Position numbers and translations under genes: made by a program. From an uncultured Verrucomicrobiae bacterium (GTDB lineage Bacteria > Verrucomicrobiota > Verrucomicrobiia > Chthoniobacterales > UBA10450), in the NCBI GenBank assembly GCA_963756875.1, contig CAVWPA010000003.1, positions 1,248,001-1,312,000 of the forward strand: a DNA stretch of 64,000 nucleotides, read 5' to 3'. Positions within the stretch are counted from its first letter, which is position 1, and each line of letters begins with the position of its first letter. Positions 14,377 to 19,721 of the stretch are shown in pieces. A model generated the notes under the pieces. That model was not told the origin of the DNA. It made no database searches and saw nothing but the letters and a program-made list of their open reading frames with translations.

Positions 14377-14474
14377 TCGCGGTGGCCATTATCAATCCCA
14401 AAGCCAACCTTACCCTCTGCCCGGCGCAGCCTTTGGCGAAGGCGAGACCTCCGATCGCTGATCTTCGTGGCGAT

Positions 14475-14546
14475 CGTTCCCGGGGAGAATCGAACTCCCA
14501 TTTAAGGTTTAGGAAACCTCCGTTCTATCCGTTGAACTACGGGGAC
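14475..14546 (-). tRNA. tRNA-Arg(CCT), reconstituted at the element junction (C3-A70 acceptor mismatch)
   Basis: Reverse complement GTCCCCG-TA-GTTC-AACGGATA-GAAC-G-GAGGT-TTCCTAA-ACCTT-AAAT-GGGAG-TTCGATT-CTCCC-CGGGAAC-G. Confidence 0.92.
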
Positions 14547-14565
14547 AAATGGCGATTTTTCTTGG

Positions 14566-14589
14566 TTGTGTCACCCGTTTGTGTCACCC
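14566..14589 (+). repeat. Tandem TTGTGTCACCC pair (putative integrase arm-type sites, left)
   Basis: ttgtgtcaccc at 14566-14576 and 14579-14589; an identical pair lies near the other end. Confidence 0.7.
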
Positions 14590-14599
14590 TGGCTTTCCG

Positions 14600-15725
14600 A
14601 TGGCCAAAAAGGCGGCGAGTCATAACGGGAAAAACGGTTCAAGAAGGTCGGGCCGAATCTATATCGAGATGCAGCCGGTCGTTATTATCTGCTCGTCAAA
14701 AAGAGCGGCAAGCAGTTTCGCCGGAGCCTAAAGACGAAGGACCCTGCGCTAGCGAAACGGCGATTGCGGGAATTTCAGGACCGGGCGGGCCGACTAAATA
14801 CGGATGGAACCAATAGTTCGATCCGATTTGATGACTTCGCAGAGATGGCTCGCAGCCAAGACGGCTGAACTTAAAGCATCCTCAGCGTATCGACGTGCAA
14901 GCGTACTTAAAGCAACTCGGCCGTTTTTCAACGGCCGTTTGGTGCGAGCGATCGGCGCGAAGGAGATCGAAGCATGGAAGATTAAACGTGGAGCAACGAT
15001 TTCCGCTCGCAGTTGGAATATCGAAGTCGAGACGCTGAAACAAATTTTCGCGTACGCAAAGGACACGTTGCGAATTATCCTGGATAATCCTGCACGATTG
15101 TTGAAGCGAAAGAAAGAACCGAAAGCGGGAATTGTTATTCCGTCGAAAGAACAATTCCGCGCTTTGGTGAATGAGCTGCGGACCGGCCATCGGCAACTGG
15201 AGAAGCGGCGGATTCGTGGAATTCCTGGCATACTCGGGATGTCGGCAAGGCAAGCGAAACACGTCCGGTGGCGCGATATCAAACGAACTTGGGACGTTGC
15301 TAATTACAGGCGGCGAAACTGGAACAAAGAATTATGAGGCGCGAACGATTCCATTATTCGCTCCTCTTGCGTCGACTTGTTGGAGTCAATGAGGACGCGA
15401 AAAACGATTGGACACTGATGACGCATGAATTTTCCAGATTGGAGATGCACGGCTTCAAATCATCCGAGCATGTGAACGTCTCGGATTGCCTCGCTTTGGT
15501 CATCATACAATGCGCCATTTTTTTTGTTCGAACGCAATCGAAGCGGGATGTGATTTCAAGGTTATTGCCGGTTGGCTTGGACATAAAGACGGGGGAGTGC
15601 TGGTCGCGATGACATACGGTCACCTTCGAAGCGAACACAGTGCTGCGATGGCGAAGCGAATTACCTTCGACGCCGTATCAGACGAACCTGACACCGATCG
15701 TTCGATCATTCCTCTGCCCGTATGA
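14600..15725 (+). pseudogene. Tyrosine recombinase/integrase with several frameshifts (decay or consensus errors)
   Basis: Pieces in different frames: arm-binding-like GRYYLLVKKSGKQFRRSLKTKD, core-binding ...DNPA, and catalytic FLAYSGCR, TKN, HTMRH, WLGH, TYGH. Confidence 0.88.
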
Positions 15726-16563
15726 GTGAAGGCAGGGAGTTGATGGAGTGGATTCGCGGCAAGTGGTATGAGCCGATCATCCGACGCGTTGAGACGTTCG
15801 AGGACGAATCGGAGGTTTTTCAGGAAGTCGAGTCGGTAACTCGAGACCTGACTCTGCGGAATGGGCTTTCGAATGCGTTATAAGGGGAGTGCGTCCATTT
15901 GGCGAAGCTAGCGGGGATTCCCTTTAGCGGCACCTTCGGCGCGAAGGAAGTGGGGGCCATTAATTGGTTCAAAGACTGCGATCTGTAAAGCGATGGCGGA
16001 AATCATAGGGTGACTCAAAGCTGGACGCCCGCAGATTGGGAGAAGTTCGTAGATGCTTGGGAGAAAGGAGGTCGATTGAATACGCGCAAAGGACGTGGAA
16101 GAGGTTCGCCGACAAATTGCATCCGGAGTTTGAGGCAATTCGGAAGTTCGCCGTGACTGAGGCGGCTAAGCAAAGCTATCTCGAAGACCTTCAATTCATC
16201 ACTGGGTTGCAAAAGGGAATGACGCTCATGGTTGAGCTGCGGAAGACAATACGTAAAGCCGTAACGAAGAGCTGGAATTCGACACCCAGAAACGGATGGC
16301 GGTTTATCTGTTTGCGATGTGCGAATGGGAGGCTATCGAAGCGAGGACGTGGGGAGTTTAGTTGGCCGGAACTGTCGGAAGCCTTCTCTGAGGCTTTCGA
16401 TCATCGGATCGAAATCGACGAAGACGCGTTCAAGAAGATACTGCAACGGTGCGGCCTTGGCGTGGGCAAAGCCTGGGCGGAAGATTCCTCTGAGGTAGTA
16501 AATCGGGACAGCGGACCGGCGTCCATGTCCTTAGTGCGCCTGCAAAGATGGGCGCATGAATGA
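15722..16563 (+). pseudogene. Hypothetical element protein, frameshifted
   Basis: ATG 15722 overlaps the integrase stop (ATGA). Coding-like pieces continue into ORF 16036..16563 (WPELSEAF...EDAFKKILQRCGL). Confidence 0.45.
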
Positions 16564-16763
16564 ACAGACAAAACTAATACAAACTCCGAAGTTCGCGCTT
16601 AATCGCGTGGAAGCGGCGGAGGCGCTAAGCGTAAGTCCGGCGACATTAGATCGCTTGGCGAATCGAGGTCTGATCCTGCCGTGTCGAGCGACAGGGCGGC
16701 CTCGTATCGATCAAGGAGATCGAAAGGTTCCTCAGCTCAACAACGCTCTTGGGCGAACTGTGA
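16556..16763 (+). CDS. Excisionase-like helix-turn-helix protein (one frameshift near 16705)
   Basis: LNRVEAAEALSVSPATLDRLANRGLI; the alternative frame gives the typical tail IKEIERFL...GEL, with a TGA overlapping the next GTG. Confidence 0.75.
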
Positions 16764-17746
16764 GCGCGGAACAGGGGCCAGTTGGAAGGCGGGAGAGCTC
16801 GGATGCCGCCGCGTCAGCGGCGGCGCCGAGCCTTCCTTGTCTTAAGAAGGATAACTGCATCGTTAATGGCAGATATCGAGCTGTCTTTGTGGCACAGGAA
16901 AACATTCGTCTCTACATCTGGAAGTTCGGAGAGCAGAACGTTGGGTCATTGACTGTTACAGCTGCGGACTGCTTGGAGTCTTCAGAGTTTCAAGAAAAAT
17001 GGCATTCGTATCTGAATCCGTTGAAAAAACTGTTTCCAACGGGCATGTGGACACGGGAGCGGCAGCCGCGAAGCGGTAACTGGCACGCGCACGCGATTGT
17101 AAATGTCGGATGGGATATCAAGACGAATTTTCCGCGGGACCAGGTTGAGCGGCGGTTCTATGCGAACGTCAATCCGCGGTTGAGGGAATTGTGGAAGGAT
17201 CTGCGAAAGACCGCGCTATCACATGGCCTCGGTCGCGTGGAGTTGTTACCGTTGAAATACGGCGGCGATGCTTGCGCTCGTTATTTTACCAAATACCTAA
17301 CAAAAGCTCTCGGTTCGGAAAAAGCGGTTGGAGAAGAGAAGTGCAGGCTTTTCAGTGTTTGGGGCGGCGTTCGGTTTGTTCATTCGCGGTTCAGCTTTCT
17401 TTCGTCGCGCATTATTCAAAAGCGAAAGCAATGGCTCACCGAGCAGTTGGGATATTCTGATACATCGGAGTTAAAAAAGCTTTCGCAGCATTGGTGGTTT
17501 CATTACGGCAAGGCTTTGTGCGACGTGATTATGCCGGAGGATTTTTACAAAGTTGGACCGCCGGGCAATCGCCAGTTTGATGATGTGGGGTTGCGTGCCT
17601 GGGAGCGCGATTGGGCGGCTTGGCCCGGAGAACCTTCAGCGGACGTGGTGACGCGATCACAATTCAACTTGTTCTATGATATTGGTTTGCGTCTGTTCGG
17701 CCGGAAATCCAGGCAGGCTTTGCAATTACGCGATGTATTTCTTTGA
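16760..17746 (+). CDS. Rolling-circle replication initiator, HUH endonuclease with YxxKY
   Basis: Motif 1 GSLTVT, motif 2 ERQPRSGNWHAHAIV, motif 3 ARYFTKYLTK. Confidence 0.85.
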   Translation: MSAEQGPVGRRESSDAAASAAAPSLPCLKKDNCIVNGRYRAVFVAQENIRLYIWKFGEQNVGSLTVTAADCLESSEFQEKWHSYLNPLKKLFPTGMWTRERQPRSGNWHAHAIVNVGWDIKTNFPRDQVERRFYANVNPRLRELWKDLRKTALSHGLGRVELLPLKYGGDACARYFTKYLTKALGSEKAVGEEKCRLFSVWGGVRFVHSRFSFLSSRIIQKRKQWLTEQLGYSDTSELKKLSQHWWFHYGKALCDVIMPEDFYKVGPPGNRQFDDVGLRAWERDWAAWPGEPSADVVTRSQFNLFYDIGLRLFGRKSRQALQLRDVFL

Positions 17747-17895
17747 GAAGCGGTAGCCCGGCAAATGAATGAGGCGCATGTTATAGAGCGTGAGGTCAAC
17801 GCATCTGAACAGCTGTTCCCGCCTAGATTTTTTGGCTACACCTTCTTTGGGCGATGCCAAAAAGGTGTTTTTATTACGGCTCGCTTACGCTTTTT

Positions 17896-18093
17896 TTAAA
17901 GTTCTAGCACTTTCTTAGCTTTCGCTACATCAGCGTCTGAGCCTTCAATCACCAATGTTGAGTCGCGGTTGATCGCGATTTTTAGATTGCTTAATCCAGC
18001 GCCGGTGAGCTGAGAGCGAATTTGTTCTTCCAACTGTTCGTACATTGCCCGCTCAAAATCGCCGGAGTTAAAATCCATTGAGAACGTAATCAT
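17896..18093 (-). CDS. Small hypothetical protein (element cargo)
   Basis: 65-aa ORF starting 8 nt after the stop of 18102..18575. Confidence 0.55.
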   Translation of the reverse strand: MITFSMDFNSGDFERAMYEQLEEQIRSQLTGAGLSNLKIAINRDSTLVIEGSDADVAKAKKVLEL

Positions 18094-18101
18094 GGACAGG
18101 A

Positions 18102-18575
18102 TTACCTTTTCTTCGCTTCCCGCACAAGTTCCCGCACAGCCGGAAGACGCGGAACCTTTCCAGTGGATTCAAGTATCTTTTCCACCTTCCGACGAACTTT
18201 GTCTCGCTTGCGCTCATCGGGAATCGACAAAATTTCCTCGGCATGCGAATCGGGTATGCGATCTAGGCGTTCTCCTTTGGTATAGTACTTGGCAAAACTA
18301 CGCGCGTTGTCGCAACTCTTACGACTCGCCAAGCCTTTCAAGGCTAGGGTGCTGACCAGTCCGTTGAGCAATCTAGATTTTCCAAATTTCTTTTCGTATT
18401 CAATCAGCAGATCCCCTAGGCGGCTTCGGGTGTGGTCTTTTGCGCGACAGAACTCACATACAGCTTCGATAAAGTCGCCCTCCGAAATCGACTGATCGTG
18501 GAGCTGAATGAAGGTGTTCGCTACAATAAACTTGGACCACAGTATGTTTTTGACTGGCGGGTTGTTGTTTTTCAT
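18102..18575 (-). CDS. Hypothetical basic protein, possibly LmbU-like DNA-binding
   Basis: LGDLLIEYEKKFG...DNARSFAKYY...ERLDRIPDSHAEEI...VRELVRE resembles LmbU-type motifs, judged by eye. Confidence 0.5.
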   Translation of the reverse strand: MKNNNPPVKNILWSKFIVANTFIQLHDQSISEGDFIEAVCEFCRAKDHTRSRLGDLLIEYEKKFGKSRLLNGLVSTLALKGLASRKSCDNARSFAKYYTKGERLDRIPDSHAEEILSIPDERKRDKVRRKVEKILESTGKVPRLPAVRELVREAKKR

Positions 18576-18663
18576 TTCCCGGTAACGGTATCCCGTTGAC
18601 GGGGAAACGTCAAGTGGGCTTTCGGGATTCGGTTACATATCACAAATTCTTTGCGCCGTAGTT

Positions 18664-18686
18664 TTGTGTCACCCTTTGTGTCACCC
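18664..18686 (+). repeat. Tandem TTGTGTCACCC pair (putative arm-type sites, right)
   Basis: ttgtgtcaccc at 18664-18674 and 18676-18686. Confidence 0.7.
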
Positions 18687-18813
18687 GGTGGGAAAAAACA
18701 GCCGATTCCTGATTATTGCTGAGGACGCTGATCGGTTTGTAAGTGTCAAGCGAGTGCGGGCTTGCGTATGCATGATGATGCCTAACGAATCCTGCAAAAA
18801 CGGCCGTTTCGCC

Positions 18814-18851
18814 TTAGGAAACCTCCGTTCTATCCGTTGAACTACGGGAAC
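18814..18851 (-). repeat. att repeat: displaced native 5' half of tRNA-Arg(CCT)
   Basis: Reverse complement GTTCCCGTAGTTCAACGGATAGAACGGAGGTTTCCTAA, ending just after the anticodon. Confidence 0.9.
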
Positions 18852-18997
18852 TGTTCCAGTTATCGGTTATCAGTTATCAGATATCGGAGGTCGGATTTCA
18901 AATTCGGATTGCGGATTCGCAATTGTCGATCTTAGCAGCGCAGGAAACAATCCGCGAAATCCGTGTAATCCGCGGTTAAGCTTCTGATCTCTGAACT

Positions 18998-19721
18998 ATG
19001 CGCGTTTTCGTAATTACCGGCGCGGGCGTTTCCGCTGAAAGCGGGATCCCGACTTTTCGCGGCAAGGACGGTTACTGGCGGAATCTCGATCCGATGACAA
19101 CTGGCAACGCCGGAAGCGTTTGCGCGCGATCCGCAACTAGTCTGGGAATGGTACAGCGAACGCCGCGACAAAATTCGCGCGGCGAAACCGAATGCCGCGC
19201 ATCAGGCGATCGTGAGATTATCGACTCTCGCGCGCGAGTTCCTGCTTTTGACGCAGAACGTTGATGATCTGCACGCGCGCGCTGGGTTCGAAGGCAAAAA
19301 GATTCCGAAAGAACAGATCGTGCAGATTCATGGCGATATTTTTGTCACTCGATGTTCGCGATGTGAATTGGAGAGGGAGGATCATGATCATGATCATGAG
19401 CAAGATCATGAGGGGGTGCCGACGTGCTCCGAGTGCGGAGGGGTGATGAGGCCGGGAGTGGTTTGGTTTGGCGAGCAATTGGATCCTAAAAAGATTGGGA
19501 GGGTGGAAACTTATCTGGGCCGGGGTCCATGTGATCTGGTGATGGTCATCGGCACGACGGCGCTTTTTGGTTACATTGTCGATTGGGCGATGCGGGCGCG
19601 CGGGAAACATGGCGAGCTCATTGAAGTAAATCCGAGCGAGACACCGATATCGTCGTTCGCGACGCGACTGGTGCGCGAACCTGCGGCAGTGGCGTTGCCG
19701 CGTATCGTTTCCGAATTGTAG
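18998..19721 (+). CDS. cobB: Sir2/CobB family NAD-dependent deacylase (frameshift near 19095)
   Basis: [26 protein letters not shown], two CxxC pairs and RPGVVWFGE. Confidence 0.9.

Follow-up and report, generated by a model that had tools for sequence, protein, structure and literature searches.

The subject of this analysis is the segment at positions 14509-18851 of a 64,000-nucleotide (nt) stretch of DNA from an uncultured Verrucomicrobiae bacterium (the whole stretch is the window; G000:C3:1248001-1312000, from a genome of 2.69 Mb in 3 contigs that is 87.6% complete). The segment is, in our judgment, likely to be a small integrative rolling-circle element in a decayed and probably immobile state; it belongs to a family common in soil Verrucomicrobiota (Chthoniobacterales and relatives). 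In relatives at the same tRNA-Arg gene, the layout is int (tyrosine integrase), orf256 (a family-specific gene of 256 aa), xis (helix-turn-helix [HTH] excisionase-like protein), rep (two-tyrosine HUH rolling-circle initiator), a conserved cis motif of ~60 nt, and variable cargo, with pairs of arm-type repeats at both ends. Because int, orf256, and xis are disrupted in the window, self-excision of this copy is very unlikely, and the claim of an earlier note on this DNA that the element can excise and replicate is not supported for the window copy.

Boundaries, direction of integration, and lesions

The element is delimited by a direct repeat of 38 nt, with copies at 14509-14546 and 18814-18851 that match at 37 of 38 positions, as the earlier note had read them; its G+C content is 0.48-0.55 vs 0.56-0.62 in the flanks, and its copy number in its own genome is 1. 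The left copy lies within a tRNA-Arg(CCT) gene on the minus strand (14474-14547; identified with ARAGORN and Rfam, 61.4 bits, and checked by acceptor-stem pairing), and the repeat covers the tRNA from position 2 through the whole anticodon loop; given the minus-strand orientation of the gene, this corresponds to the 5' half of the tRNA, and the element lies upstream of the tRNA gene. In the acceptor stem, the 5' strand (GTCCCCG) and the 3' strand (CGGGAAC) are mismatched at 3:70 (C3:A70); the 7 other tRNA-Arg(CCT) genes that we compared (6 beside related elements and 1 in a relative's genome) pair at 7/7 positions. The fragment displaced to the right end (attR core, 18814-18851) contains GTTCCCG, which pairs perfectly with CGGGAAC. 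Since the attR copy pairs perfectly and the working tRNA mispairs, the attR copy is the chromosome's original 5' half; the 5' half of the working tRNA (attL core, 14509-14546; the same repeat delimits the relatives) was supplied by the element and the 3' half is from the host, that is, the tRNA gene is a hybrid. From the pairing pattern, the 5' half of the element came from a lineage with C3-G70, and the crossover occurred between position 3 and the anticodon loop.

The hybrid is the sole tRNA-Arg(CCT) gene found in the assembly, and the host apparently relies on this mismatched tRNA for reading AGG. With this direction of integration, the tRNA's native promoter, which is right of attR, would now be directed into the minus-strand cargo genes, and the tRNA would have to be transcribed from the left end of the element; in a scan for promoters and terminators, the number of sites was not above that in shuffled sequences, and an Rfam scan of 14400-19000 matched the tRNA alone. 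An empty attB, sought via the flanking permease gene, was not obtained among the 6 closest orthologue loci: five of these lack a tRNA next to the permease, and the sixth (G006) has it in inverted orientation (G002, G007, and G014, which are unpublished genomes, enter this tally, and that of related genomes below, as rows only). Directly to the right of attR is a Sir2-family (CobB-like) gene (18998-19721) with one frameshift near 19090; both of its pieces match PF02146 (profile positions 1-28 and 74-175). The gene is either a real pseudogene or contains a sporadic assembly indel.

The lesions in the element were mapped by three-frame translation, tblastn with the intact proteins of relatives, and a five-way DNA alignment. 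The tyrosine integrase is a pseudogene (14600-15725, plus strand): homology from the ATG at 14600 to 15725 runs through all three frames, with in-frame stops, and nine frameshifting indels are specific to the window (14632, 14843, 15192, 15212, 15244, 15282, 15369, 15386, and 15400). The frame pieces match Pfam and PHROG integrases. Only the last 79 amino acids (aa) reach the PF00589 catalytic domain (25.6 bits vs a cut-off of 27.1; the intact integrase of the relative at locus L013 scores 60.3 bits), so a single open frame with this domain is not found in the window; in relatives, int is intact and encodes 366-391 aa. The integrase of the earlier note holds as a homology and fails as an open gene.

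The two following genes are also changed. The window copy of orf256 (15722-16563, plus strand) is broken into its first 53 codons (15722-15883) and a 3' part of 175 aa in another frame (16036-16563), with stops between; near-full-length homologues have 252-266 aa in 24 of 25 cases, with the remaining one having 192 aa, so the 'unknown ORF' that had been taken as a separate gene corresponds to the 3' portion of a disrupted 256-aa gene. In xis (16556-16763, plus strand; an HTH_17 excisionase-like gene), a 2-nt deletion near 16701 shifts the frame after codon 49, and the conserved C-terminal ..IKEIERFL.. is found in the +1 frame, ending with the TGA at 16761-16763. Because this deletion puts xis in the frame of rep, the two form one 396-aa open reading frame (ORF) at 16556-17746; in relatives xis is separate (67-76 aa), with a stop codon that overlaps the ATG of rep. 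The HTH and HUH genes had been described as separate; in the window they are one fused ORF, produced by the frameshift. In two metagenome proteins (P0004 and P0005, 422 and 432 aa), the HTH excisionase-like part and Rep likewise share a single frame; these could be natural fusions, or could result from the same type of frameshift in short contigs.

The protein encoded by orf256 has 29 matches, including the window fragment, all unnamed and without Pfam domains; there is no match in Pfam, PHROG, NCBIfam, or PADLOC. Its AlphaFold2 (AF2) model is all-helical (predicted local distance difference test, pLDDT, 70.9). In structure comparisons with VIA-align the best match has Z 7.0 (TenA-like helical bundles), and in BFVD no match was below E 1. 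With the C-terminal 70 aa, winged-helix-like rows appear at Z 6-7, which is within the noise for a helical protein; we take a possible DNA-binding accessory role, suggested by these rows of the model comparison, as a lead only.

The Rep protein and its family

In the window rep (16760-17746, plus strand) is assembled within the 396-aa ORF from 16556 and has GTG at 16760, the place at which relatives carry the ATG. Numbered in that ORF, the protein contains, in order, a uTuT motif (LTVT, aa 132-135), an HUH motif (WHAH, 176-179), and a two-tyrosine YxxKY motif (YFTKY, 243-247), all three of which the earlier note had identified; T133, T135, H177, H179, Y243, and Y247 are invariant across 87 homologues. 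The 321-codon body (16760-17722) has zero indels and 79% identity to the L013 Rep over 335 aa; a 1-nt insertion at 17723 and downstream deletions cost the protein its C-terminal tail of ~20-60 aa. Of 94 highly conserved columns, the window Rep deviates at 2, a number equal to the family median (the tail frameshift accounts for one of them), and a quick tree gives it an end branch of 0.16 vs a median of 0.17. Judged by these comparisons, signs of decay in rep are confined to its two ends.

The assignment of Rep to the replication initiators, as proposed in the earlier note, is borne out by three lines of homology. The PF23343 family (REP_ORF2-G2P) is matched by 81 of 87 family members at E<=1e-3, and phrog_3419 ('rolling circle DNA replication initiation') is matched by 23 of 24 distant Rep relatives. 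The most informative is a tblastn search of plasmids, which located 25 records of 0.7-2.1 kb, all typed as non-mobilizable and several annotated 'phasyl DNA replicon protein arp', with 28-36% identity to Rep across the catalytic 170-180 aa; by BLASTP, the window Rep is 29% identical to one Arp across 220 aa (E 2e-21), and the three motifs of both proteins fall in register. A metagenome contig (L106; 1,795 nt) has a 127-nt exact terminal overlap, that is, it closes to a 1,668-nt circle, and encodes only a small HTH ORF and a Rep of the family; this circle is a candidate for a free mini-replicon with kinship to the integrated elements (its placement in the quick tree is unsure because it is on a long branch). 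From the plasmid Arp homology and the L106 circle, Rep therefore belongs to a family that runs tiny autonomous replicons.

The AF2 model of Rep (pLDDT 78.7; confident core at residues 100-396) gives 72 matches at E<=1e-3 in BFVD, with Microvirus and circular Rep-encoding single-stranded (CRESS) Reps on top and TM scores of 0.2-0.3. Among solved structures, SIRV1 ORF119 is the best match (Z 7.8, root-mean-square deviation 3.5, 111 residues aligned), and RepB and AAV5 Rep are found at Z 6.1, interleaved with ACT and S6 folds; searching the Rep profile against PDB sequences gave a chance-level match only (E 0.18), and Foldseek gave nothing in the PDB at E<=0.001. A Foldseek row for a REP-associated Y1 transposase is weak (E 0.058) and is no better than other HUH rows. 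Using Pfam, Y1_Tnp and Y2_Tnp were not matched in the window ORFs at E<=0.1 (the threshold for the 9 window ORFs; E<=0.01 was used for 27 proteins of relatives), and the ends of the element are a tRNA-derived repeat with arm sites and an integrase instead of the transposon-type ends of an HUH transposase. The possibility that Rep is a Y1/IS91 transposase or a canonical relaxase was considered and rejected, given the PF23343 matches (81/87), the phrog_3419 matches (23/24), and the Arp homology (E 2e-21).

The family is large. The Rep ORF has 173 protein matches at E<=0.001, mostly of ~350 aa, from Verrucomicrobia/Chthoniobacterales metagenome-assembled genomes (MAGs) and soil metagenomes; a profile search of 1.84 billion representatives gave 1,358 matches at E<=0.001 and 159 at E<=1e-30. 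Nine of the 61 related genomes that were searched contain a match, with the genome of the window included in the count, and full-length matches are restricted to G026 and G001. A species-genome collection provided 15 loci and metagenome contigs provided 218 places confirmed by tblastn, of which 80 were examined further; because some loci are duplicates (e.g., L029 and L013, L073 and L021), the locus counts are not independent. The arrangement in the window, that is, tRNA-Arg(CCT) on the minus strand followed by int, an ORF, xis, and rep, is present in 6 of the 15 genome loci, so the synteny at this tRNA that the earlier note had suggested looking for does recur. Other sites are also used: two genome loci are at tRNA-Ser(GCT) and in five rep is directly after tRNA-Phe or tRNA-Lys; three of the latter (L022, L023, and L026) have another integrase at the far end. 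Twelve elements could be delimited by their tRNA-derived repeats and measure 2,720-6,821 bp; from repeat start to repeat start, the window element is 4,305 bp.

We scored intactness on the gene cores at the 26 loci in which both int and rep are inside the contig. Both genes are intact in 22, only int is broken in 2 (the window and L020), only rep is broken in 1 (L081), and both are broken in 1 (L024); in L028, L039, L050, L056, and L086, the stop codons in int are upstream of the real start. The family is therefore mostly intact, and the window copy is in a decayed minority. One integrated copy (L019, DATHEW010000489.1) is on a contig binned as Candidatus Acidoferrum (Acidobacteriota), with all other named hosts being Verrucomicrobiota; this is either mis-binning or spread across phyla.

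Literature searches for a description of the family located only work about the integrative and conjugative elements of actinomycetes (AICEs), integrative mobilizable elements (IMEs), and unrelated subjects. The family appears to be undescribed in Verrucomicrobiota, as the earlier note had suspected; its novelty had been overstated, since modules that combine an integrase, an excisionase, and a rolling-circle replication (RCR) Rep are already known from pSAM2-type AICEs and streptococcal IMEs.

Arm repeats, the conserved motif, and cargo

Two pairs of an 11-mer were overlooked in the earlier note. The left pair of TTGTGTCACCC (14566-14589, plus strand) ends 11 nt upstream of the ATG of int, and the right pair, of the same 11-mer, is at 18664-18686 (plus strand); these are 4 exact copies vs 0.03 expected. 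Arm repeats are found at the matching places at both ends in the relatives at tRNA-Arg. The arrangement fits candidate integrase arm-binding sites that flank attP.

Also overlooked was a conserved cis motif of ~60 nt with an imperfect 12-bp hairpin (17811-17870, plus strand), located on the 3' side of rep. The motif is 88-97% identical among elements whose Reps share only ~50% identity, and its 16-nt core is found exactly in 36 of 124 loci, on the rep strand every time (the count includes the window's own or duplicate records). The motif is the best candidate for the origin or nick site of Rep, a role that we put forward as a guess.

In several relatives the motif is duplicated, and the copies bracket cargo genes (L013, L014, L030, and L070); pairs surround inserts of 0.7-1.4 kb in L013 (6701-6753/8077-8137), L030 (1244/1944), and L070 (2620/3314). 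The insert in L013 is a gene for a TIR-domain protein, and the second motif is preceded by a remnant of the 3' end of another rep; this suggests that cargo accumulates when tandem integrations are followed by deletions. Extra modules that are bounded by arm and core sequences and contain neither int nor rep are found in tandem behind a full element in L014 (12581-14106) and L028 (6164-9270); these are either cargo-only derivatives that might be moved in trans or leftovers of tandem integrations. In L042 (1332-1420) and L076 (3844-3930), a degenerate tRNA 5' half follows the motif by ~20 nt without arm repeats or cargo, and this arrangement may represent the scar of an old att site or a form without cargo.

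The cargo of the window is two ORFs on the minus strand, the two small opposite-strand genes that had been described: one of 65 aa (17896-18093), which is open, and one of 157 aa (18102-18575), which is open and intact. Neither has a family match in Pfam, PHROG, NCBIfam, or PADLOC; for the 157-aa protein there are 7 homologues with 56-82% identity, all unnamed, and the Atlas gave only unnamed clusters. The cargo of several relatives can be assigned: a CAP12/Pycsar TIR protein in L013 (PADLOC PDC-S35, E 4.8e-54), a DUF5343 protein in L014 (PDC-M34A, E 3.2e-43), a trypsin-like protease (Trypsin_2) with a GrlR-like protein in L015, PemK with RelB in L017, and a weak match to PDC-S31 in L020.

From these parts we infer how intact members may function. 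A lambda-type tyrosine integrase, with an N-terminal arm-binding region, would bind the paired TTGTGTCACCC sites that flank attP, and the attP core, which duplicates the 5' half of tRNA-Arg(CCT), would recombine with the chromosomal tRNA gene, with the crossover at or near the anticodon loop; the integrated element would then be upstream of the tRNA and provide it with a new 5' half. Excision by Int and the HTH excisionase would release a circle of 4-7 kb; the two-tyrosine HUH Rep would nick its origin, probably the conserved motif at the 3' end of rep, and rolling-circle replication of the excised DNA would follow. The variable cargo (a TIR effector, toxin-antitoxin, and candidate defence genes; in the window, the two ORFs) would ride along. 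Because no capsid, morphogenesis, or conjugation gene is encoded, transfer from cell to cell would need an outside route.

Known systems, alternative explanations, and significance

The nearest relatives of Rep in known systems are the Arp proteins of phasyl-type mini-plasmids (Enterobacteria, Pasteurella, Aeromonas; 0.7-2.1 kb), which are homologous HUH proteins that also match PF23343. Unlike the members of the integrated family, these are free plasmids without integrase, excisionase, att site, or cargo. Phasyl itself is a hybrid of phage and plasmid; it was reportedly described by Seufert, Lurz and Messer in 1988 with a phiX174-like origin.

The combination of genes in the family resembles three classes of integrated elements. 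The pSAM2-type AICEs (PMC2440964) integrate in tRNA genes with a tyrosine integrase, have a rep-xis-int operon, and replicate by rolling circle after excision; they are conjugative elements of 9-24 kb with a TraSA/FtsK-like transfer gene, Kor/Pra regulators, and Nudix genes. Both groups have Rep, xis, and int in one tRNA-integrated module; however, TraSA/FtsK-like, Kor/Pra, and Nudix families were matched by no window ORF or relative's protein, the gene order of the family is int-orf-xis-rep, the host phylum is different, and RepSA is reached only by the plasmid Arp, weakly (17 bits). Streptococcal IMEs, according to Coluzzi et al. 2017 (PMC5357655), have a compact RCR-type HUH protein (Rel_PHA00330, Rel_PF01719, or MobT), an excisionase, and a tyrosine integrase; the same set is present here in the order int-orf256-xis-rep, a likeness in gene content. 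Most of these IMEs also encode a coupling protein, TcpA, and the HUH protein in them is interpreted as a relaxase; no coupling protein is found in this family, and the hosts are Firmicutes in one case and Verrucomicrobiota in the other.

The tycheposons of Prochlorococcus, as outlined in bioRxiv 10.1101/2020.12.28.424599, combine a tyrosine recombinase that targets tRNA genes with a small replication module and with cargo that varies, and have no capsid or conjugation genes; tandem arrays and degenerate remnants at the same tRNA are a further likeness. In the same account they are larger, with cargo of up to 10 kb or more, and replicate with primases, helicases, or polymerases and not with an HUH Rep. 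The window element also has the features by which Islander recognizes islands, namely, a full tRNA gene and a displaced end fragment in the same orientation and correct configuration, with an integrase between them, the integrase here being a pseudogene; as in Islander islands, the crossover is centred on the anticodon loop. A displaced 5' fragment is given for 159 of 3,919 Islander islands (PMC4383910). Because the family uses this minority orientation, the element must supply the 5' half of the tRNA and probably its promoter as well. The family shares the logic of AICEs, IMEs, and tycheposons, and it adds a phasyl-type Rep, very small size, integration on the 5' side of a tRNA, and a Verrucomicrobial host.

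Families for capsid, Zot, terminase, coupling protein, or type IV secretion system proteins were matched by none of the 9 window ORFs or 27 proteins of relatives, in line with the earlier statement that no virion, Zot-like, or conjugation gene is recognizable; the Zot/pI ATPase or capsid protein F that identifies Inoviridae and Microviridae prophages was not matched in the element. We also searched for possible helpers in the genomes. Zot (PF05707), Phage_F (PF02305), VirD4 (PF02534), and VirB4 (PF03135) were not found with these models in the genome of the window (87.6% complete), the Phage_F result being weak because the control genomes were silent too; VirD4, Zot, and VirB4 were not found with the same models in five genomes that hold intact elements (one genome searched is 98% complete). 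In IMG/VR, two Rep peptide patterns gave 81 pattern matches, none upheld by tblastn, and tblastn with the L013 Rep found no match in 50,697 phage records.

If the lesions in the window were errors of the assembly consensus (a poorly polished long-read MAG, with related elements confusing read mapping), the element would be intact and active. Several observations are compatible with this explanation: the nine indels in int are small (1-2 nt) yet are accompanied by only 20 lineage-specific substitutions, below the number in any of four intact relatives; each frame piece of int still has 66-94% protein identity to L013; the adjoining Sir2 gene also carries one frameshift; and the genome is in 3 contigs at 87.6% completeness. 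However, the rest of the 64-kb window has the appearance of a good assembly, with 88% of it in long open stretches (many ORFs of 400-1100 aa, e.g., those of 1104, 761, 695, 603, 578, 570, and 562 aa), and the Sir2 gene beside attR is the only other clear frameshift outside the element. Also, the 963 nt of rep contain 0 indels vs 9 in the 1.1 kb of int (at the density of int, ~7.7 would be expected in rep; P(0) ~5e-4), homopolymer runs hold only 2-3 of the 9 indels, and decayed copies are found elsewhere in the family (L020, L024, and L081). On balance we think it unlikely that the lesions are errors. Even less room is left for the segment to be a deletion remnant of a larger known prophage or integrative and conjugative element, as might be suggested by the clear degradation of the window copy and by the tandem and partial modules in relatives (L014 and L028): because the 12 repeat-delimited relatives are all small (2.7-6.8 kb) and the scanned proteins match no capsid, Zot, terminase, or transfer families, and with int and rep both intact in most relatives, this explanation is already contradicted and we give it very little weight.

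Two other explanations concern how the family lives. Its members could be integrative mobilizable elements in which the HUH protein is mainly a non-canonical relaxase; it would nick the ~60-nt motif as an oriT, and the circle would be carried by the conjugation pore of another element, in the manner put forward for streptococcal IMEs. The streptococcal IMEs have the same compact set of RCR-initiator-type 'relaxase', excisionase, and tyrosine integrase (PMC5357655), the element has no transfer genes of its own, and the exact copies of the motif that were listed are all on the rep strand (36/124 loci), that is, the motif is strand-specific. However, a coupling protein (TcpA or VirD4) is found in no element, VirD4 and VirB4 (PF02534 and PF03135) were not found in the genome of the window or in the five genomes with intact elements, and the nearest characterized-type relatives of Rep are the replication proteins of non-mobilizable mini-plasmids; we consider mobilization as the main role of Rep to be improbable. 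Satellites of filamentous phages that bear a Rep are known, RS1 and TLC, with CTXphi, being examples, and the family could similarly be satellites of a single-stranded-DNA phage (microvirus or inovirus), with Rep producing single-stranded circles and the motif as the packaging or origin signal for the capsid machinery of a helper. In structure comparisons Rep is matched best by Microviridae Reps (E 1.7e-5), the Pfam description of PF23343 brings microvirus and inovirus Reps together in one family, the sizes of the elements are in the range of virus genomes, and the cargo resembles phage defence or interference. Against this, IMG/VR (by the two peptide patterns) and the phage records (by tblastn) contain no relative, Zot was found in none of the six genomes, and the genome of the window gave no Phage_F, the latter with the weakness stated above; a satellite lifestyle seems quite improbable to us.

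We therefore return to a decayed copy of a self-contained integrative rolling-circle element as the likely explanation, and several observations weigh against it. The int pseudogene has 20 lineage-specific substitutions vs 31-49 in the four intact relatives, despite its 9 indels; such a ratio would be unusual in natural decay, and it leaves consensus errors some room (the test by codon position is weak, with third positions saturated among the lineage-specific substitutions). The window Rep scores 25.3 bits with PF23343, under the Pfam gathering cut-off of 27.8, and the L013 Rep is also below it (26.6 bits; Arp, 42.5 bits); these scores mark a divergent branch and are compatible with homology. 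The matches of Rep to solved structures are no more than middling (Z<8), and ferredoxin-like folds of non-Rep proteins stand among them. The attP arrangement (arm-core-arm) was found in 0 of 80 metagenome loci, and none of them is an element-sized circular contig. Finally, the ~60-nt motif starts at or overlaps the stop codon of rep in many relatives, its hairpin is no better than in shuffled sequences (z -0.95), and its left arm varies without compensation; the motif could be a terminator or regulatory site.

A broader reading joins these observations, and we offer it tentatively, as doubtful but possible. The family would be an undescribed class of minimal self-replicating integrative elements in which a phasyl-like HUH replicon is combined with a lambda-type int/xis, and it would shuttle defence and toxin-antitoxin cassettes among soil Verrucomicrobiota without any transfer or packaging gene; the motif, more conserved than the proteins, would be the Rep nick site at which cargo modules swap or stack. 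In the window, Rep, the motif, and the cargo would have been kept by selection after int, orf256, and xis died, so that Rep would be useful while integrated, for example, by amplifying the cargo in situ.

The window copy is a decaying relic and as such is the less important part of the finding; yet it is a natural experiment, in which the hybrid tRNA gives the direction of integration and the retained parts (the body of rep, the motif, and the cargo) are seen after the recombination genes were lost. The homology of Rep ties the free phasyl-type mini-plasmids to integrated int-xis-rep elements. If the family works as proposed here, its members, with ~3.3 kb of core genes, would be among the smallest self-sufficient elements in bacteria that integrate, excise, and replicate. 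The mobile elements of their hosts, the soil Verrucomicrobiota, are almost uncharted, and in this phylum the family appears to move candidate anti-phage genes.

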